DNA of 64,000 bases from Alphaproteobacteria bacterium. GTDB taxonomy: Bacteria; Pseudomonadota; Alphaproteobacteria; Rs-D84. The translations under genes and the position numbers were made by a program. The notes below the pieces were generated by a model. It was not told the DNA's origin. It saw nothing but the letters and a program-made list of their open reading frames with translations, and searched no databases. Positions 13 to 49,211 of this stretch are shown piece after piece. Location: positions 154,546-218,545 of the forward strand of contig JAFTPS010000014.1 in the NCBI GenBank assembly GCA_017463185.1, in the 5' to 3' direction. Within the stretch, counting starts at the first letter, position 1. Each line of letters opens with the position of its first letter.

Positions 13-1239
13 CTAAAAAACGTATCTCAAAGACAAACCACCTGTGTGATTAACCACATCTGTATGTAATCTTAAATCATAATTTAGGCGTAAATTTATG
101 CCGCTAATATTATATTCAGCCCAAATGCCAAATTCTGCCCCCAGTGGTCGTTCTGTGTCTTCTATTTCAAAATTGTATTTATATCCCAATACATCTAAAT
201 CTACTTTATTGTCTGGTTGTGTAATATTATATTCAACAAATGCACGACCACCCAATACAAAATCACCAATCGCATGTTCATAACCCGCCCCTGCAACAAC
301 ACTATAAAAATCACTTTTGGATTTTTTTAAGTATTCACTGTTTTGATTTAATTCTATATTTGTGTATCTGATACCAATTTCTGGACTTAATCCGTATTCT
401 GTTTTATAACCCGCCATAACCGATGCAAACAAACCAGATACATCACCATTATTCAATTCACTATCTATATACTCATAATCTGCAAAGTTATACGCAACCA
501 GCCCATTTACATAGAATTTGCTCGGTTGCCATTTTGAATATAAAAATACACTGCCTGTATCAAATAATATATCAGACGGATTTATATCTATATCAACATT
601 TGAATAACTGTATCCCGCACCCATTAAAACACTATCTGACAACTGTAAATCCGCCCCCAGAATAACCCCCAGTCCATTTGTTGAATAATTGTATTTACCA
701 GACTTATTCATTGAATTAAGTAATGTTGTTCCCCATACAGAAAACTTATCATCATTAAACCCTATATTACCAAAAACAGAATTATAAATATCAATATTAT
801 GTTGTTTTACAATATTTCTTGAAATGCCAATAACCGATAAATCCGTCAATTCAGAAACATTATTCGCAACCCAATTATCAAATTGATTTTTTAAGTCTGC
901 TACATTCTGTAAAACAAATTCATCCCCCTCTAAACCTATTTCCTTATCAAAATTTTCAAACGTTATACCAGAATAATAAAATTCACTTGGACTATAAGGT
1001 GCCTGATATTCATAACCGTTTCCATCACCCAACCATTCTGTTTGAGTTAATACTAAACTATGTTCAAACGGTTTATAATAATAGTAAATATCTGAAATTT
1101 GTGTTAATTGTCCAGCCGCAGCATATGCAGGGTCAATAACACTATACATATTACCATCATATGAAACCAACGTTAAATCCACTGCATGTGCAGAAATTGC
1201 ACAAAATATACCAACCAAACCAAATATTATCTTTTTCAT
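13..1239 (-). CDS. Outer-membrane beta-barrel protein (autotransporter/OMP-like), signal peptide
   Basis: N-terminal signal peptide MKKIIFGLVGIFCAISAHA. Gly/Tyr-rich amphipathic beta-strand pattern throughout and a C-terminal ...LSLRYVF ending in aromatic Phe, typical of OM beta-barrels. Preceded by the conserved structured leader (copy 1). Confidence 0.55.
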   Translation of the reverse strand: MKKIIFGLVGIFCAISAHAVDLTLVSYDGNMYSVIDPAYAAAGQLTQISDIYYYYKPFEHSLVLTQTEWLGDGNGYEYQAPYSPSEFYYSGITFENFDKEIGLEGDEFVLQNVADLKNQFDNWVANNVSELTDLSVIGISRNIVKQHNIDIYNSVFGNIGFNDDKFSVWGTTLLNSMNKSGKYNYSTNGLGVILGADLQLSDSVLMGAGYSYSNVDIDINPSDILFDTGSVFLYSKWQPSKFYVNGLVAYNFADYEYIDSELNNGDVSGLFASVMAGYKTEYGLSPEIGIRYTNIELNQNSEYLKKSKSDFYSVVAGAGYEHAIGDFVLGGRAFVEYNITQPDNKVDLDVLGYKYNFEIEDTERPLGAEFGIWAEYNISGINLRLNYDLRLHTDVVNHTGGLSLRYVF

Positions 1240-1490
1240 ACTACACCCTTTGTAAAAAAAACACCGCCAATAAAGGATATTGACGGTCGGGCGTTTCCAA
1301 AAATCATACTGTAAATGACTCCCATTGCGTTCAGGTTGCCCTTATTGTATTACAACGGGTGGCCCGACCAAAGGTCAGGCATAACGATGCGAATGCACCA
1401 TTTGCAAAAGTGGATAACGATGCATATCGCACCGTACAGTATGGGCTTTTGGAACCCGAACCCGCTAGTCCCCTATCGGATTCAATACTT
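1240..1490 (-). promoter_or_regulatory. Conserved structured 5' leader, copy 1 (terminator hairpin plus U8 abutting the RBS; upstream complementary antiterminator segment)
   Basis: In RNA orientation the leader reads ...GGGUUCGGG...CCUGACC..GGUCGGGCC...UAUGAUUU..GCCCGACCGUCAAUAUCCUUUAUUGGCGGUGUUUUUUUU-ACAAAGGG-N7-AUG. GGUCGGGC is complementary to GCCCGACC, which overlaps the terminator stem. The same architecture and motifs recur at 9328-9595 and 16493-16715. Confidence 0.55.
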
Positions 1491-1534
1491 ATAATAACAG
1501 TAAATACCTATAAATGCAAAAAATAAAAAAACGA

Positions 1535-7992: not shown

Positions 7993-9327
7993 TTAGTTCA
8001 GTTTACCAACAACTATTGCTGGCACTGCATTTGCCGTTGGGATACGAACAAATACAATTGCATTTTCAATACCTTCTGGGATAACAACTTCTAAGCCATC
8101 ATTGATAAATAATTTTCTATCAACAGGCATATTGACACGTGCCGTTTGAATTTCTGTTGGTATAGAATCCCAAGATCTTAAATCCCACGGTTTCTTTACA
8201 CTCATAACCCCGGTTACTGCCGCCGCTGTTGCTGCTGCCCTAAACGGAGTATCCTTAGCCGCTTCATTTGCTGCATATCCTGCTGCAGTTGCGGCGGCAA
8301 TTTTTCCAATTTCAAACGCTACTGAACTTATAATATTACGTGTCTTATATTTGTTATAATCAGTTTTAACAACAGAATCAACATTTACTAATTGTTGTGT
8401 TGTAACCGTTGTATCGCCAGATTTAACACTTATTGTTTCTAATGCTTTGGTTCCTGGGAATACATCAGGGATAGTCAGTTCAATACCCGCTTCAACCCCT
8501 AATGCTGACAATGGTTGTGTCAAAGGTTTCAAAACATCTGGTACCAATGAACGTTTTTGCAATTGTCCAACCATACCGTTTTCAAAAACAACATAAACAC
8601 TTCCTTTTTTCAAACCAGCAACATCTGATTTAACAAAAGTATTTTTTGGTGCAAATTTTGCAACTCTGCTCATACCATTGTTCGCATTACTATAATCACC
8701 GCTGGCACCATCATACAACGCCATCAACCAAGTAGTATATGGATTTGCATAATCTTTCATTGCGGTAATATCATCATCCAAAGACGATACATCTTTACTA
8801 ATGGAATCAGTAATAGAATCCAAACTTGGCACATTGATACCAAATTCTTTTAATATTTTTTGATCTTCTTTAAATTTCTCTTGTTCTTTTGCAATTTCAT
8901 CACTATTTTCGCTTATATTTTCTTTTTGTAAATCATATACCTGATTAAACACTTGCTTTGCATAAGAATCATCATTTGCAATCAGTCCAATTCCTTCATA
9001 AGTCTTGAACATAATCTTTTCATAACTTTTGATTTTATATGATGAATCTTCATCGGTTTCACCCTTTAATATAGAATTTACCGGTGAAAAACATGTTTCA
9101 AGTCCTTCTGCATTATTTGCCCATAAATATGCATTACCACACTGCAATCCACCCAAATAAACATTATTCGGTTCTTGATTTAATACAGTTGCCTTAGCCA
9201 TCTTTTCTGCTGCAACTTCGTAATTACCATTTGAAAAATCCTCGCGATATTGTTTGGAAATTTCTGCGTAATTACCATTACAGGCCGCCAATACCAGACA
9301 TCCTGTCAATAAAGTTATTTTTTTCAT
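7993..9327 (-). CDS. Lipoprotein, first gene of the four-gene envelope operon
   Basis: Start taken at MKKITLLTGCLVLAAC (lipobox LAAC). Ala/Thr-rich C-terminus. Immediately preceded by leader copy 2. Confidence 0.45.
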   Translation of the reverse strand: MKKITLLTGCLVLAACNGNYAEISKQYREDFSNGNYEVAAEKMAKATVLNQEPNNVYLGGLQCGNAYLWANNAEGLETCFSPVNSILKGETDEDSSYKIKSYEKIMFKTYEGIGLIANDDSYAKQVFNQVYDLQKENISENSDEIAKEQEKFKEDQKILKEFGINVPSLDSITDSISKDVSSLDDDITAMKDYANPYTTWLMALYDGASGDYSNANNGMSRVAKFAPKNTFVKSDVAGLKKGSVYVVFENGMVGQLQKRSLVPDVLKPLTQPLSALGVEAGIELTIPDVFPGTKALETISVKSGDTTVTTQQLVNVDSVVKTDYNKYKTRNIISSVAFEIGKIAAATAAGYAANEAAKDTPFRAAATAAAVTGVMSVKKPWDLRSWDSIPTEIQTARVNMPVDRKLFINDGLEVVIPEGIENAIVFVRIPTANAVPAIVVGKLN

Positions 9328-9595
9328 TGCACATCCCTTTGTTAAAAAATAAACCGTCAATGGAATTTGACGGTCGGGGAGTTAGCAAATCATATATGTC
9401 AATGATTCTGTCGCTTTTAGGTTTCCCCTGTTGTATAACGAACAGCCCCCCGACTGATTTACAGTCAGGGATAAATAACGACACAAAACCACAGGAATGA
9501 CATCGGATAACGATGCCATACGCAATTTTGCACCGGACATATAAAGGCTTGCTACAGCCCCGAACCCAATTCCCATTGGATTCATTTCCTAGTTT
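9328..9595 (-). promoter_or_regulatory. Conserved structured 5' leader, copy 2
   Basis: RNA orientation: GGGUUCGGGG...CCCUGAC..CAGUCGGGGGGCUGUUCGUUAUACAACAGG...UAUGAUUU...CCCCGACCGUCAAAUUCCAUUGACGGUUUAUUUUUU-AACAAAGGG-N8-AUG. Terminator-like hairpin plus U-tract. GUCGGGG is complementary to CCCCGAC. Confidence 0.55.
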
Positions 9596-15882: not shown

Positions 15883-15914
15883 AAAAAAACACCGGTAATT
15901 GCCGGTGTTTTTGT
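15883..15914. terminator. Bidirectional intrinsic terminator (caccggtaattgccggtg)
   Basis: Perfect palindrome flanked by A- and T-runs, between the convergent ychF and OMP genes. Confidence 0.55.
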
Positions 15915-16492
15915 TAGAAACGATAACCAATACTGGTTGTTATGGCAAAACCAGATGTATCAACTGTATATTCATAACCGTTTACATCAGTTTCAAAATT
16001 CATAATTTGATATTCTAATCCACCCTTTATAGACAGATTATCATTGAAATTATATTTCACACCGGCGCCAATGCCATAGGCAACGGCTGTATCATCAAAG
16101 CTTAAACTTCCGTCATCATATTCCATATTTGCAAATCCTAATTCTGCTGAAATGTATGGTTGTGTTTTTCCGTCCAAGAATGGAACAATAGCTCTTAAAC
16201 TAACACCAAATATTTCTTCCGTTTCTGTTTCTGAAAATTCTGGTGCAATACCAATTTGAATACCGTCAAAATCAATGCCGACATATGCAGAACCATTACC
16301 GTTAAAAGCAGAAGAATCTGCTTCTGTAATTTTTGTTCCGTCTAATTCATATTCCGCAGATGTGTTTGAATACAAACTGATTCCATATTCAATAAAAAAT
16401 CGTGGGTTTAATTTATTTTGTTGAACACTTTCTTCTGCAAAAGAAGTCACCGGCAACAAAGCCAATGCGGCAATTATTGAAATTTTTTTCAT
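15914..16492 (-). CDS. Small outer-membrane beta-barrel protein (Omp25/OmpW-like)
   Basis: Signal peptide MKKISIIAALALLPVTSFA and a C-terminal ...TTSIGYRF. Preceded by leader copy 3. Confidence 0.6.
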   Translation of the reverse strand: MKKISIIAALALLPVTSFAEESVQQNKLNPRFFIEYGISLYSNTSAEYELDGTKITEADSSAFNGNGSAYVGIDFDGIQIGIAPEFSETETEEIFGVSLRAIVPFLDGKTQPYISAELGFANMEYDDGSLSFDDTAVAYGIGAGVKYNFNDNLSIKGGLEYQIMNFETDVNGYEYTVDTSGFAITTSIGYRF

Positions 16493-16715
16493 ATTTTCTC
16501 CCTTTGGTTAAAATTTAAACCGTCAGAAATGACGGTCGGGGTGGTTGATAAATCATAGTTTAGGAAATGACTCTGTTGTCTTTGGGAAAATCCCTGTTAT
16601 ATAACAAACAGCCCCCCGACCGTTATAGGTCAGGGATATTTCAGTGTGTAATAAACACTGCCTAAACTATTGGGTTATCACACCCCGAACCCACATCCCT
16701 GCAGGTTCATTAAAA
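16493..16715 (-). promoter_or_regulatory. Conserved structured 5' leader, copy 3
   Basis: RNA orientation: GGGUUCGGGG...CCCUGACC..GGUCGGGGGGCUGUUUGUUAUAUAACAGG..UAUGAUUU..CCCCGACCGUCAUUUCUGACGGUUUAAAUUUU-AACCAAAGGGAG-N4-AUG. Confidence 0.5.
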
Positions 16716-16939: not shown

Positions 16940-17254
16940 ATGAAATCTGGTGGTTGGATTTATATTTTATCAAATAAAAAAATGGGTACTTTGTATGTTG
17001 GTTCAACAACCGATTTAGTTGGACGAACATGGCAACATAAAAATCGTTGGATTCCTGGTTTTACATCCAAATACAATATTGATAAACTGGTGTATTATGA
17101 ATGGCATGACAGTCTTGAAAATATGGTTTTGCGTGAACGTCAAATAAAAGAATGGAAACGTGCATGGAAATTAAGACTAATAATAGATTTTAACCCCGAT
17201 TGGCTTGATTTATATAATGAGTTGTTAACTAAATCAGGCTATATCCCAGAATAA
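16940..17254 (+). CDS. GIY-YIG nuclease family protein (UPF0213/COG2827-like)
   Basis: GIY-YIG core ...GWIYILSNKKMGTLYVGSTTDLVGRTWQHKN... About 70% identical to the paralog at 63596-63910. Flanked by 24-bp direct repeats: caggaacacaatagaccccggcct at 16790-16813 and cacagaacacaatggactccggcct at 17261-17285. Confidence 0.75.
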   Translation: MKSGGWIYILSNKKMGTLYVGSTTDLVGRTWQHKNRWIPGFTSKYNIDKLVYYEWHDSLENMVLRERQIKEWKRAWKLRLIIDFNPDWLDLYNELLTKSGYIPE

Positions 17255-17343: not shown

Positions 17344-17406
17344 TCACTACCCACTAACCACTTACACTAACCACTATAAAAATCCCGCCATTGGCAGGAT
17401 TTTTAT
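17344..17406 (+). ncRNA. Candidate small RNA 3' end: CA-rich motif (cactaaccacttacactaaccacta) followed by an intrinsic terminator; copy A
   Basis: A 33-nt motif nearly identical to 43881-43913, in both cases immediately followed by aaaaatccc-GC hairpin-tttt. No ORF is present. Confidence 0.3.
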
Positions 17407-42660: not shown

Positions 42661-43332
42661 ATGTCACTCTCGCCGCAAAGATATTTTGAACTGGTTCCCC
42701 CGACCGTAGACATGACGATACGGTCGGAATTGTATCACACAAACGAATTTAACTTTGCGGTGGCGGTGATTTTGTCGGCCCAGGCGACTGATAAAAAGGT
42801 AAACGAAGTCACGCCTGAATTATTCCGCGTCGCACCAACACCACAGAAAATGTTGGAATTGGGAATTGATGGACTTAAAAATCATATTCGTGTTATTTCA
42901 TTTTTTAATAACAAGGCAAAAAACATAATTGCGCTTAGCGCGCAATTATGTAAAGAGCAAAGCGCAGAGAGCAAAGAGCAATTAGATTATAAGTTTCCAC
43001 TAGAATACCACAATCGCGATGCGTTGATGAAATTACCCGGCATTGGTCAGAAAACCGCAAATGTTGTGTGTAATGTTTTGTGGGGTGCACCGAACATAGG
43101 CGTGGATACACACGTTTTCCGCAATGCGCACCGATATGGTTGGGTGGATGAAACGGACAACACACCAGAAAAGGTGGAACAGAAATTGTTAAAAAAAATT
43201 CCACGTAAATATCATGCGATTGTAAATCATGTAATGGTCCTGCATGGCCGCTATACGTGCAAGGCTTTGCGTCCAGATTGTAAAAATTGCCCCGTGGCAA
43301 ATTGGTGTCCCGCCCCAGATAAAAAAATTTAA
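42661..43332 (+). CDS. nth: Endonuclease III
   Basis: HhH-GPD (LPGIGQKTANVV) and an [4Fe-4S] cluster motif C-x6-C-x2-C-x5-C (CKALRPDCKNCPVANWC). Confidence 0.85.
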   Translation: MSLSPQRYFELVPPTVDMTIRSELYHTNEFNFAVAVILSAQATDKKVNEVTPELFRVAPTPQKMLELGIDGLKNHIRVISFFNNKAKNIIALSAQLCKEQSAESKEQLDYKFPLEYHNRDALMKLPGIGQKTANVVCNVLWGAPNIGVDTHVFRNAHRYGWVDETDNTPEKVEQKLLKKIPRKYHAIVNHVMVLHGRYTCKALRPDCKNCPVANWCPAPDKKI

Positions 43333-43686
43333 TTATATGATTTTATCAAATTCCTGTCTGCGTTCATGATATATTTTATCGTACACGCGATAATTGCTTT
43401 CACGATTGATGATTTTCTCTAAATCCTGTAATACAGATTTCAGATTCAGAAATGCACTAAACACCGCAGTATATATTTCTTCGTGTGTCGGTCTGTTTTT
43501 GCGCGATTCAGTTATTGCCTGTGCGATTTCCAACAATGTTTTATTTTTTGCTTCTTCGTTCATGACCGTACCCCTATCGTAAAATCCCACTTTGTGGAAT
43601 AAACAAAAACCGCATTTGAAAACAAAAGCGGTTGGAGTTTTAGAACAATTAAGCGAATTGCATGCCTTATTCAATATATTCGGCAT
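43333..43686 (-). CDS. Hypothetical small protein (true start possibly at internal MNEEAKN, about 76 aa)
   Basis: ORF only; no motifs recognised. Confidence 0.25.
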   Translation of the reverse strand: MPNILNKACNSLNCSKTPTAFVFKCGFCLFHKVGFYDRGTVMNEEAKNKTLLEIAQAITESRKNRPTHEEIYTAVFSAFLNLKSVLQDLEKIINRESNYRVYDKIYHERRQEFDKII

Positions 43687-43880
43687 ACTCCAACCGCAAT
43701 GGTCGGAGTATTTAACACCTCTTCAGGTGCGCTCAAAGGGTTCTAAAGCCCCACACTGAAAAACCTCAGTGCCAGCACATTATATGATATATAAAATACA
43801 ATTTCAAATGCTTAGATAAATAAAAGTTTATCAGAGTGGTAAGTGTTTGCACTATAATGTGCGGCATTCGCCACACGCAT

Positions 43881-43941
43881 TCACTAATCACTAACCACTT
43901 ACACTAACCACTAAAAAATCCCCCCATCTGGGGGATTTTTT
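43881..43941 (+). ncRNA. Candidate small RNA 3' end: CA-rich motif plus intrinsic terminator; copy B
   Basis: tcactaatcactaaccacttacactaaccacta followed by aaaaaatcccccc-atct-gggggatttttt. A possible promoter (ttatca..N19..tataat) lies about 60 nt upstream at 43818-43848. Confidence 0.3.
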
Positions 43942-46750: not shown

Positions 46751-47983
46751 TTGTGGGGGGAATCTATGACATTTAACGATATTATCAAAGAATCATGGCT
46801 GTCAATCAGTGGCAACAAAGTCCGTTCTTTTTTAACGGTATTAGGTATTATTATCGGCGTTATGGCGGTTGTGATAATGGTCGCTGTTGGTGAAACTGTG
46901 CAAAAGCAAATCACAGACCAGTTTTCATCACTGGGGACAAATACGATTATGATTCGTGCTGGCGCGGCCCAGACCGCAGGTGTCCGCACGGGCAGTCGCC
47001 AAACCCTGACAATGGATGACGCAGAATTTATCGCAAAATTACCCGATGTTATGGCGGTCACACCGGTCCAGAACGGCGCAGCCCAGGTAATTTACGGTAA
47101 TAAAAACTGGGCCACATCAATGGTCGGTGTGTATCCAGATTATACAACCGTTCAAAATGTTGAAATTGAATACGGCACATTTTTTGACCAGGCGGCGGTC
47201 CGTAATGCATCCACTTATGCGGTAATTGGGCCCGAAACGGCCGAAGAATTGGGGATGGATAAAAATCCCGTTGGCCAGGTTATTCGTATTCAAAACACAC
47301 CGTTTACAATTATTGGTGTGACGCGGGCTAAGGGTGATTCCGCAATGGGCAGCCAGGATGATATGGTAATCATTCCCGTGACCACATTGAAAAAACGCCT
47401 TTCGGGCAGTCGTTTCCCCAATGCGGTCCAGATGATAGCCCTGAAATTATATGAAAATTCGGACAATAACCTGGCCATTGACCAGATTACCGCCCTGTTG
47501 CGCGACCGCCATAAATTAAAAGACGACGCGGCGGACGATTTCCAAATCATGGATATGAAACAGATTATGGAAACAATGAATAATGTGACTGGATATTTGA
47601 AATTATTACTGATTGCTATTGCAGCGGTATCGCTGTTGGTTGGCGCAATTGGAATTATGAATATGATGTTGGTGTCGGTTGCCGAGCGTACACGCGAAAT
47701 CGGTATTCGCAAGGCAATTGGCGCGCGCGAACGCCATATTATCACGCAATTTCTGGCCGAATCAGTTATGATTTCATTTATTGGTTCTATGGTTGGTTTG
47801 ATATTGGGGGTTGGCCTGTCCCAGGGTGTGGGGCGTTTTGTAATGGGATACAATGTCCCGTTCAGTGCCTGGCCAGTGGTGCTGTCGGTCACCGTTGCGG
47901 TTGTGGTTGGATTGTCATCGGGTGTAATGCCCGCGATGAAGGCCGCAAAACTGAATCCAATTGACAGTTTAAGACATGAATAA
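46751..47983 (+). CDS. ABC transporter permease, FtsX/MacB-type with periplasmic domain
   Basis: 410 aa: TM1, a large periplasmic domain, and three C-terminal TM helices (FtsX fold). Follows the ATPase gene. Confidence 0.8.
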   Translation: MWGESMTFNDIIKESWLSISGNKVRSFLTVLGIIIGVMAVVIMVAVGETVQKQITDQFSSLGTNTIMIRAGAAQTAGVRTGSRQTLTMDDAEFIAKLPDVMAVTPVQNGAAQVIYGNKNWATSMVGVYPDYTTVQNVEIEYGTFFDQAAVRNASTYAVIGPETAEELGMDKNPVGQVIRIQNTPFTIIGVTRAKGDSAMGSQDDMVIIPVTTLKKRLSGSRFPNAVQMIALKLYENSDNNLAIDQITALLRDRHKLKDDAADDFQIMDMKQIMETMNNVTGYLKLLLIAIAAVSLLVGAIGIMNMMLVSVAERTREIGIRKAIGARERHIITQFLAESVMISFIGSMVGLILGVGLSQGVGRFVMGYNVPFSAWPVVLSVTVAVVVGLSSGVMPAMKAAKLNPIDSLRHE

Positions 47984-48060
47984 GTAAAATAATCAAAAGG
48001 GACGGCAGTTTCGTCCCTTTTAGTTTCTTGAATAATTTTATTATTCCTATTATAATTTAT

Positions 48061-48261
48061 CCGTCAACGGGTTTTCCGTTGACGAGGCCTGATAACCTCA
48101 CTCAGTGCGTCGGAATAGATTTTTCTTGTTGCGACGTTAAATCATCTCCTGACCCCGGTCAGGAGGGTTGTGAATATATTGAATAAGCACGCAATTCACT
48201 GAGTTGTTATCAGCCTCCTGACCACCTAAATACGGTGGTTTTGTTTTTATCTGGAGGAAAA
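48061..48261 (+). promoter_or_regulatory. Structured 5' leader with long-range P1 stem, internal hairpin and RBS-proximal terminator hairpin (candidate riboswitch/attenuator)
   Basis: gaggcctgataacctcactcagtg (48085-48108) pairs with cactgagttgttatcagcctc (48194-48214). The inner hairpin is ctcctgacc-ccg-gtcaggag. cctcctgacc is repeated at 48213. accacc-taaatac-ggtggt + tttgttttt lies immediately before the RBS ggagg and ATG. Confidence 0.4.
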
Positions 48262-48627
48262 ATGAAATATCTTTTAACTTTTGTTTTTGGAATATTTTTG
48301 GCAACAAATGCGCAGGCTGTACCCAGTACAGTTTGCATGACGCGCATTGAATGCCAGACGGAATTAGCCACCCTGGGCAGCACATATCGCTGCTGTGCAC
48401 GAACCCAGACATCCTATACCTGTCCCACGGGCTGGCACGCATTGGGGACATCAACCTGTTATCGGTTGCCGGTGGCCAACGGCGAATCTGACCAGAAAGG
48501 ATACCTGGGCACAAAATACGGCAGTTGCGCTGTCATATCCAGCACCAAGACCTGCTATTACACAACGACGGGAACATGTCTGGCAACGGATTTACCCATA
48601 GATTCAGAATTAGAGGCTATTCAATGA
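48262..48627 (+). CDS. Small secreted cysteine-rich protein (121 aa)
   Basis: Signal peptide MKYLLTFVFGIFLATNAQA. The mature region has 10 Cys. RBS ggagg. Confidence 0.5.
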   Translation: MKYLLTFVFGIFLATNAQAVPSTVCMTRIECQTELATLGSTYRCCARTQTSYTCPTGWHALGTSTCYRLPVANGESDQKGYLGTKYGSCAVISSTKTCYYTTTGTCLATDLPIDSELEAIQ

Positions 48628-48911
48628 GGAAACTAATTGTGTCCCTGCTCTTGTCTGTTCTGTTTTCGCCCGCGTTTTGCTCTTGTAAAGAAACCGGCAC
48701 AGTTTATGTCGCATGCAAACCGGGATATTATCTGGAAAGTTATGATTGCAAACGTTGCCCATCGTCCGGCGGCGTATATGGCACAACCGTTGATAATAAC
48801 AAGGGCGACATAACCAGTTGTTATATCCCAACCGACAAATTATCGGCAGAGGATAACAGTGGCTATTTTACCTGTGGGGCGGATACATATTATGTAAAAC
48901 CATCACAATAA
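48624..48911 (+). CDS. Small secreted cysteine-rich protein (95 aa)
   Basis: Signal peptide MRKLIVSLLLSVLFSPAFC, with 8 Cys in the mature region. ATGA overlap with the upstream gene. Confidence 0.45.
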   Translation: MRKLIVSLLLSVLFSPAFCSCKETGTVYVACKPGYYLESYDCKRCPSSGGVYGTTVDNNKGDITSCYIPTDKLSAEDNSGYFTCGADTYYVKPSQ

Positions 48912-48938
48912 AAATCCCGGCATTTGCCGGGATTTTTA

Positions 48939-49211
48939 TTACTTACGCAGACCCAATTTTTTAATCAGTTCCTCGTAATCAGCCACATTGCGCTTTTTGA
49001 TATAAGCCAACAATTTTTTGCGACGGTTTACCATCAGCAACAGACCGCGTTTTGAATGTTGGTCTTTGTGATTGGCTTTCATATGTTCTGTCAAATTGCG
49101 AATGCGTTCTGTCAAAACTGCAACCTGGGATTCCGCGGAACCACCATTATCTTTTTCAGTTGTTTTATACGCCTGAATCAGTTCTGATTTTTTTTCTTTT
49201 GTCACGGACAT
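48939..49211 (-). CDS. rpsO: 30S ribosomal protein uS15
   Basis: 90 aa; ...[19 protein letters not shown]... is canonical S15. Confidence 0.95.

Follow-up and report, generated by a model that had tools for sequence, protein, structure and literature searches.

A probable self-locking attenuation leader of the sRNA-Xcc1 type upstream of cysteine-rich genes in an Enterousia-like alphaproteobacterium

In a 64-kb stretch of the alphaproteobacterial contig JAFTPS010000014.1 (hereafter the window; all positions are counted from its first letter), two small genes encoding cysteine-rich proteins are preceded by a structured region of ~190 nucleotides (nt), spanning 48057-48250, and this locus raises the question of what such a leader does and where it comes from. 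An earlier note on this DNA regarded it as a riboswitch-like leader with mutually exclusive terminator and antiterminator states. The results described here argue that the region is probably a promoter-proximal transcription-attenuation leader that is off by default, and a self-locking derivative of a three-way-junction RNA of the sRNA-Xcc1 type (sRNA, small RNA). This reading is based on two alternative folds, each with its own covariation, and on a chain of relatives that leads to bona fide sRNA-Xcc1 in phages.

Two exclusive folds of the leader

The minimum free energy (MFE) of the leader was -80 kcal/mol, compared with -51 +/- 4.3 for shuffled sequences (z = -6.8; 0 of 200 shuffles equalled it). 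The elements of the leader, all on the plus strand, are as follows.

48028..48056, +, sigma-70-like promoter TTGAAT-17-TATAAT, recognised from the sequence
48062..48084, +, P0, a perfect 9-base-pair (bp) hairpin at the 5′ end (48062-48070/48076-48084), from folding and repeat search
48084..48108, +, 5′ strand of P1, made up of P1a GAGG, P1b CUGAUAAC and P1c ACUCAGUG; first element of the "lock"
48108..48136, +, P2, a variable hairpin, from folding and relatives
48146..48154, +, up-copy CUCCUGACC, which forms the 5′ side of P3; second element of the lock
48157..48166, +, switch strand GGUCAGGAGG, the partner of the up-copy in P3 of fold A or of the down-copy in B1 of fold B
48167..48196, +, P4, a hairpin whose loop GAAUAUAUUGAAUAAG at 48172-48187 is conserved across copies
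48192..48213, +, 3′ strand of P1, in two segments (48197-48204, 48206-48213); P5 and a linker take its place in fold B
48214..48223, +, down-copy CCUCCUGACC, used by P1a and the terminator in fold A and by the switch strand in fold B
48220..48248, +, predicted intrinsic terminator GACCACC-loop-GGUGGUU (48220-48240) with a U-tract to 48248, from sequence and folding
48253..48257, +, ribosome-binding site (RBS) GGAGG, from the sequence, with the start codon ATG at 48262

P1 is a long-range helix of ~20 bp in three segments (48084-48087/48214-48217, 48089-48096/48206-48213 and 48100-48107/48197-48204), and GAGG..CCUC of the same region can alternatively form a local hairpin, Px. P3 joins CTCCTGACC at 48146-48154 to GGTCAGGAG at 48157-48165; the 9-nt arms are separated by a 2-nt gap, which leaves effectively 8 bp and a 4-nt loop. 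An exact second copy of CTCCTGACC is located at 48215-48223, inside the 10-nt CCTCCTGACC (48214-48223), and the latter is complementary to GGTCAGGAGG at 48157-48166. The 5′ arm of the terminator overlaps this down-copy by 4 nt, and the terminator ends 4 nt before the RBS. In fold B, the stem of P5 is formed by CAAU (48192-48195) and GUUG (48203-48206). The description in the earlier note of a long-range P1 helix of about 20 bp, hairpins, a duplicated 9-mer and a terminator abutting GGAGG was therefore borne out by sequence and folding. No leader peptide was seen in the leader.

The loop of P4 reads GAATATATTGAATAAG in the window leader. Its self-complementarity (AAUAUAUU) is not conserved in all variants and was not relied on. 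An internal promoter within this loop was considered and rejected, as there is no consistent -10 element. At the position of P2, relatives carry a GC hairpin followed by a U-tract; in leaders of six loci (L069, L048, L040, L099, L101 and L103) and in phage variants, this is an internal GC-rich hairpin and then UUUUUUAUG(C/U)C. The arrangement resembles a terminator or pause site, and the lock has retained it in copies ranging from E. coli phages to Enterousia. In the window leader the hairpin is apparently lost and AUUUUUCUU is kept.

For comparison, 26 full-length homologues were collected from 83 related loci with nhmmer, using the leader and then a profile, and equivalent promoters were found upstream of every homologous leader. 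The copies are consistent with two mutually exclusive predicted folds, both supported by covariation. Fold A, which consists of P0, P1, P2, P3, P4 and the terminator, is the MFE structure of nearly all of 27 full-length leaders, and it is kept although the sequences of P0, P1b and P1c differ completely between copies. Using RNAalifold on a plain MAFFT alignment of the full leaders, only fragments were recovered; the variable loops misalign, and for this reason anchored helix fitting was used. In the resulting alignment, which was fitted by hand with gaps as N so that the pair counts lean to the structure, 93.3% of the cells were paired, the covariation score was 0.869 (shuffles, 0.226; slid partners, no more than 0.127), and double-sided changes occurred in 32 of the 36 pairs. 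In P0, all 7 pairs counted across leaders had changed on both sides. When the 5′ half was shuffled as a null for the fitting, near-perfect P3, P1b and P1c together were obtained in 5.6% of the controls, versus 74% of the real leaders.

Fold B consists of B1, formed by the switch strand and the down-copy, which encloses P4 and P5; P5 is built from the J4/1 linker and the P1 internal loop. Here a plain MAFFT alignment of 33 cores was sufficient, with 86% paired and a covariation score of 0.388 versus 0.172 for shuffles, none of 500 shuffles being equal. With alignment by R1, a covariance model that we built from leader cores, 92.6% were paired and the score was 0.515, and for 72 distinct metagenome sequences outside the R1 training set the values were 95.5% and 0.520. 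Compensatory changes were found at 17 of the 19 pairs in these 72 sequences, and at 15-17 of 19 over all alignments. Because the 3′ strand of P1c is the unconstrained P5 loop of fold B, and the P5 stem is unpaired in fold A, neither fold explains the covariation of the other.

The three strands that the folds compete for change in concert. At least 10 variants of up-copy, switch and down-copy were seen, including CUCCAACC, CUCCUGACC, CUCCUGCC, CUCCCGAC and CUCCCACA, and the differences between up-copy and down-copy were mostly wobble-compatible. Among 46 distinct triplets, which covary, the up-copy paired worse than the down-copy in 42, mostly through G-U wobbles, a comparison that is biased in that down-copies were picked for good pairing. 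Most copies within one genome have the same switch sequence, GGUUGGAG. The two pairings of the GGTCAGGAGG strand that the earlier note had proposed as exclusive are both preserved in many copies through compensatory changes.

For full leaders, the stability advantage of fold A over the best B1-containing fold averages 11.2 kcal/mol, with values from 0.3 to 16.9. In an RNA that starts at the switch strand, fold B is the MFE structure, and B1 leaves ~3 bp of the terminator. Because B1 takes 4 of the 7 nt of the 5′ arm of the terminator, fold B would act as an antiterminator; the energetics therefore suggest that the 5′ third is an anti-antiterminator, the lock, and that the default is off. In the proposed mechanism, the 3′ two-thirds (48157-48231) can fold as an Xcc1-like junction composed of B1, P4 with its invariant AU-rich loop, and P5. 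When the lock closes, the up-copy 9-mer captures the switch strand in P3 and the 20-nt strand captures the P5, linker and CCUC region in P1, leaving the terminator free to form. The default outcome would be premature termination with release of a ~190-nt RNA, and the downstream genes would be expressed only if the lock were kept from closing during transcription. Candidates for opening it are a factor binding the invariant P4 loop, RNA from sibling or orphan copies, and the kinetics of transcription.

Kinship with sRNA-Xcc1 and distribution of the leader

At the gathering thresholds of Rfam, no match was found anywhere in the window or in nine viral loci. When 121 nt were searched in E-value mode on short stretches, the core at 48157-48231 matched RF02221, sRNA-Xcc1, over model positions 1-87 of 87 with 29.5 bits (gathering 53; E = 9.3e-4). 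The helices match one to one, since the outer helix of Xcc1 corresponds to B1, its first hairpin to P4 and its second hairpin to P5. Intermediates connect the two. Divergent variants from viral contigs, which lie upstream of Rha, AntA and Bro-N antirepressor genes, scored 28-34 bits with RF02221 and 58-76 bits with R1, and so are recognised by both models. Their 5′ region gave a BLAST match to the E. coli Stx2 phage Lyz12581Vzw (L104, MN067333). In this phage, a bona fide Xcc1 copy (69.3 or 74.5 bits) closely precedes each of two coding sequences (CDS) annotated as antirepressor (Ant), in the same setting of lock, terminator and RBS, and one of the copies is also matched by R1 (39.2 bits, E = 7e-9). 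By eye, the phage leader has a strand GAGGCCUCGAAAACCUC..CCCAAAAG complementary to the 3′ part of the core, an internal hairpin with a U-tract, a weak P3 and a CACCAC..GUGGUG terminator.

At 40.6-41.5 kb of MN067333, the series lock, sRNA-Xcc1, terminator and antirepressor gene occurs twice in tandem. The phage records have no annotated feature where the BLAST match lies, and the CDS table of this phage has no entries in either intergenic region.

sRNA-Xcc1 is carried by integrons, transposons and phages, and occurs in Xanthomonas, Xylella and Stx phages of E. coli. In APSE phages it lies upstream of an ORF6N protein, and in integron cassettes of Xanthomonas it precedes symE (10.1101/2020.03.17.996009; 10.1101/2025.06.18.660453). 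In Xylella it is multi-copy and clustered, with Xcc1 RNAs in fives (PMC12189769), and an RNA of ~88-100 nt has been detected in Xanthomonas (PMC12189769, PMC2996969). The searchable literature that mentions sRNA-Xcc1 treats it as a trans-acting sRNA, with no mechanism, lock or attenuator role described.

The window core has the three-way junction of this family, with an outer helix GGNNNGGRG / CYCCNNNCC around two hairpins, and also its signatures GG..GGRGG and CYCC..CCACC, the latter with an ACC-rich tail. The loop flanks GAAUA..AAUAAG of the first hairpin are common to P4 and bona fide Xcc1. Both elements are multi-copy, reside on mobile DNA and lie just upstream of small regulator or toxin genes. 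On the other hand, the score of the window core is below the gathering threshold, its P4 loop lacks the inner ACCCG..GGGG hairpin, and the core begins ~95 nt downstream of the predicted transcription start, within a longer leader that also has a canonical terminator and a strong lock (P1 and P3) that covaries. Moreover, the leader has expanded in Enterousia, whose genome of 0.75-1.0 Mb is estimated to hold dozens of copies. Judged from sequence and predicted structure, the leader core is homologous to the Xcc1 fold, and we classify the element as an expanded relative of sRNA-Xcc1 with a newly recognised attenuator architecture. Complete novelty, for which an Rfam comparison had been suggested as the check, is not supported, as the core is a sub-threshold relative of a known family, linked through intermediates to bona fide members.

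The leader is widespread. A scan with the core pattern matched 16 IMG/VR contigs and at least 120 metagenome stretches, among them human-gut assemblies and other JGI/ENA metagenome contigs, and the 80 gut-metagenome loci searched contained 74 further core matches. In all, related metagenome-assembled genomes (MAGs), gut metagenomes and viral contigs provided more than 100 further copies. No match was obtained by BLAST of the leader against cultured-phage genomes, or of a phage-contig variant against plasmids.

In the window itself, a descriptor scan for hairpins with a 5′ arm repeated 35-130 nt further on, before a T-run, found five leaders of the same design, versus 0 in five shuffled windows. 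The four others are as follows.

43598..43780, -, second leader of the same subtype (core 43625-43698; 83 bits), upstream of an open reading frame (ORF) of 76 amino acids (aa) at 43333-43562 (-)
16500..16712, -, type 2 leader upstream of an outer-membrane protein (OMP) beta-barrel gene at 15914-16492 (-); z = -6.1 versus shuffles
9345..9585, -, type 2 leader upstream of a lipoprotein-like gene at 7993-9327 (-); descriptor scan
1245..1500, -, type 2-like leader upstream of an autotransporter-domain gene at 13-1239 (-); descriptor scan

Among the three type 2 leaders, the comparison with shuffles covers the 16.5-kb copy. The type 2 leaders have the same architecture of lock, switch and terminator around a different conserved central module, ..GUUAUAYAAC..GAGUCAUU..AUGAUU; in them the switch GGUCGGGG is preceded by CCCUGACC and followed by CCCCGACC.

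The density of leaders is one per ~13 kb in the window and one per ~40 kb in macB neighbourhoods, from which, with the reported genome sizes, dozens of copies per genome are estimated. The RNA also exists without a gene behind it, as demonstrated by orphan leaders and arrays. In locus L133 (150-1000), four complete leaders follow one another, each with its own promoter and terminator, and an ORF (84 aa) is present after the last only. Locus L140 (168-565) contains at least five head-to-tail copies of a ~77-nt core with no ORF between them, in which the down-copy of each unit doubles as the up-copy of the next; two complete leaders and an XRE-family gene follow. A weak match to the core model in reverse orientation (24.9 bits; L099:3341-3419, -) was noticed directly downstream of a Cys-rich pair, and may be a degenerate copy.

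Attenuation and its alternatives

Several points weigh against attenuation in cis as a complete account. Termination and read-through are predictions from the sequence, and the pair counts of fold A come from the hand-fitted alignment described above. Fold A is far more stable, and fold B may form only after processing and not during transcription. About a quarter of the copies are orphans or tandem arrays with no ORF, such as those of L133 and L140, which a purely cis role leaves unexplained, and one copy (L074:12274) has no terminator.

These copies bear on a comparison with phage "immunity" RNAs. The c4 RNA of P1/P7, CI of P4 and IsrK of Gifsy-1 come from the leader of the operon that they control, and in c4 (a1b1 / a'b' / a2b2) and CI (seqA / seqB / seqC) one sequence is flanked by two complementary copies. 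The present leader shares with them the design of up-copy, switch and down-copy, premature termination as the output, and antirepressor genes in its phage relatives. It differs in that neither the C4 (RF01695) nor the IsrK model matched (E <= 10 in the leader, E <= 5 in phage variants), no evidence of RNase P processing was found, and the Enterousia cargo is mostly non-phage genes. Unlike in c4 and CI, the down-copy at 48214-48223 lies 30 nt upstream of the RBS and overlaps the terminator, not the RBS. The element could, like sRNA-Xcc1, c4, CI and IsrK, be mainly a gene for a trans-acting sRNA, in which the terminator ends the sRNA and the downstream gene is a passenger or target. The released or processed RNA would then act on other transcripts, for example sibling leaders that share switch and copy sequences. 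The tandem orphan leaders with their own promoters and terminators and the head-to-tail core arrays agree with such a role, as does the switch common to most copies of a genome. The nearest Rfam family is classed as an sRNA (PMC12189769, PMC2996969), and the phage relatives precede antirepressor genes, as c4 and IsrK do (10.1101/2020.03.17.996009). However, an ORF preceded by a Shine-Dalgarno (SD) sequence starts 15-60 nt past the terminator in ~72-90% of the copies, always on the same strand, and because of this short, fixed gap there is no space for a separate promoter. P1b and P1c are copy-specific, so that most of the lock is usable only in cis, and no complementary target for the conserved loop was identified. 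We consider a mainly trans-acting function to be clearly the less probable reading; a trans-acting or self-regulating role is nevertheless plausible as a serious rival, and is compatible with the attenuator model.

The attenuator model also has parallels among trp attenuators, T-boxes and riboswitch platforms, in that the lock corresponds to the anti-antiterminator and B1 to the antiterminator, followed by a terminator, and the element is promoter-proximal with the gene within tens of nt. In contrast to these systems, no leader peptide, tRNA-binding specifier or recognisable aptamer was seen in the leader. A riboswitch in which P4 and the junction bind a metabolite or second messenger that chooses between the folds would account for the strong covariation on a terminator/antiterminator platform, and the two types of central module on one platform could be two aptamers. 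Regulons of c-di-GMP riboswitches have a similar multi-copy spread before surface and regulatory genes. But the junction strands vary or covary with the lock, no conserved pocket is seen in them, and the invariant positions are GGAG, CUCC and the AU-rich P4 hairpin loop of 15-16 nt, an unusual site for a ligand pocket. No metabolic theme unites the cargo, and relatives occur in tandem arrays and before phage antirepressor genes. A small-molecule riboswitch is therefore improbable, and the ligand sensing implied by the earlier note is not supported; a sister subtype has a replaced central module. Still further from the data is a repeat that functions only as DNA, such as a miniature inverted-repeat transposable element or recombination site. 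The multiple copies, the insertions at different sites and the direct repeats around an inverted repeat would fit such an element; yet the pairings tolerate G-U, recognition by R1 is strand-specific (18 bits on the reverse strand versus 83 bits), each copy has a promoter upstream and a terminator and RBS downstream in fixed orientation, and no target-site duplication accompanies the insertion. We give this explanation hardly any weight.

Two other comparisons were made. Integron attC sites are expected to carry a GTT core, and an attC site was rejected by eye, as this core is absent in the GGTCAGG variant of the switch. The tandem cores of L140 are like the RNA arrays of type III toxin-antitoxin systems, but the genes downstream are heterogeneous and none matches a toxin family.

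Cargo genes, insertion sites and meaning for the host

The leader of the window is followed by two genes, which together with it lie between two terminators.

47995..48021, +, bidirectional terminator 3′ of a macB-like gene; upstream edge of a ~0.93-kb accessory insert
48262..48627, +, cargo gene 1, for a 121-aa protein with a signal-peptide-like N-terminus and 9 Cys
48624..48911, +, cargo gene 2, for a 95-aa protein with a signal-peptide-like N-terminus and 7 Cys
48905..48942, both strands, bidirectional terminator, common to rpsO; downstream edge of the insert

The two ORFs and their ATGA overlap are as the earlier note gave them, with 9 and 7 cysteines where 10 and 8 had been counted. Its statement that they belong to no recognisable family holds for Pfam and NCBIfam, in which nothing was above cut-off (a weak "Bubble" match had 17 bits), but not for the 95-aa protein as such. 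The latter is one of a conserved family that comprises 22 clusters (~91 aa), in which six Cys are conserved and the motif reads CKPGYYL..C.RCPSSGGVYGTT.DNNTG.ITSCY. Divergent partner ORFs of the 121-aa protein share the motif CC..TCP(S/T)GW..KGY..G(T/S)C, and a relative of the Cys-rich proteins matched Ephrin_rec_like weakly (E = 6e-4). An AlphaFold2 model of the 95-aa protein from 23 sequences was unusable (mean predicted local distance difference test score, pLDDT, 49). The ORFs are conserved, with an orthologous pair 88% and 93% identical; in the syntenic orthologue L081 the leader core is identical and the genes are ~8% different, with synonymous changes in excess.

The 95-aa protein recurs at three further genomic sites, again behind a divergent partner ORF of the 121-aa type and a leader core. 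Leader and cargo thus travel together as a cassette to different genomic sites, and homologous leaders with Cys-rich pairs do exist in relatives, as the earlier note had suggested looking for. The link to this pair is not specific, as the pair is one of many types of cargo. In Enterousia, about half of the cargo genes encode small XRE-like helix-turn-helix proteins, with weak matches to HTH_3, HTH_19 and HTH_31; others encode small helical proteins, and a third group encodes proteins with signal peptides, often rich in Cys. OMPs and autotransporters are also found, and Rha, AntA and Bro-N antirepressors behind phage-type copies. Among the metagenome copies with enough flanking sequence, an SD-preceded ORF was present behind 50 of 69 and absent behind 19; of the 50 ORFs, 24 encode small proteins that are not secreted, 18 encode signal-peptide-like proteins with as many as 41 Cys, and 8 encode larger proteins.

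The insertion at the window locus can be delimited by comparison. In the related locus L003, the ancestral terminator comes directly after the stop codon of macB, with rpsO next. Because macB directly precedes rpsO there, the ~0.93 kb that hold terminator, promoter, leader and both ORFs in the window are an insertion; no target-site duplication was seen at it in this comparison. Another site is adjacent to nth (HhH-GPD), where L101 (1689-3297, compared with window 42661-43780) holds a Cys-rich cassette and the window holds a different leader with the 76-aa gene in the opposite orientation. This suggests that the intergenic site next to nth is a hot spot for cassette insertion.

Some repeats were observed near leaders. 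Heptamer-like blocks of TAGTGGTTAGTGTAAGTGGTTAGTG(A/G)(T/G)TAGTGA are present at 43882-43915 and 17352-17390 of the window (minus-strand reading), directly after bidirectional terminators. The 43.9-kb block is just upstream of a leader promoter, and the 17.3-kb block is ~0.6 kb upstream of a type 2 leader with a GIY-YIG ORF in between. Similar runs of GTTAGTG are located upstream of leaders in L073, L074 and L058. The ORF in question (104 aa, 16940-17254, +) is GIY-YIG-like by eye and is flanked by GC-rich repeats (ccggggtctattgtgttc / ccggagtccattgtgttc); related 'gtcattgcgag..caatccag' repeats are scattered through the Enterousia loci L037, L070 and L140.

The macB-like gene (46751-47983) is 80-91% identical to 80 MAG loci labelled Enterousia or Alphaproteobacteria, and by such sequence similarity the host of the window is assigned to a Candidatus Enterousia-like alphaproteobacterium. 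Genomes of Enterousia are 0.75-1.0 Mb (PMC12306168). Hfq, ProQ and CsrA gave no tblastn match in the DNA sampled, which consists of loci and is less than a whole genome.

With five leaders per 64 kb in genomes of this size, the leader would rank among the dominant regulatory devices of a reduced-genome gut symbiont, and it marks the mobile surface and secreted gene cassettes of the organism. In this locus and its relatives, the Xcc1 fold is one of two alternative states of a leader with a terminator at its end. This provides a hypothesis for the function of sRNA-Xcc1, an RNA annotated in many plant and animal pathogens and phages, that can be tested by mutation. The same arrangement before the antirepressor genes of Stx phages offers a hypothesis for the control of antirepressor leakiness. 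A much wider picture, which we regard as speculative and rather unlikely in its entirety, is that a gut symbiont of ~0.9 Mb controls accessory, surface and regulator genes, estimated at dozens, by one family of self-locking switches descended from a phage antirepressor-control RNA, sRNA-Xcc1, with copies, orphans and arrays communicating in trans through their shared switches. If true, this would be a genome-wide, RNA-only, "immunity-like" regulatory network, and the function of sRNA-Xcc1 would be that of the antiterminator half of a bistable leader.

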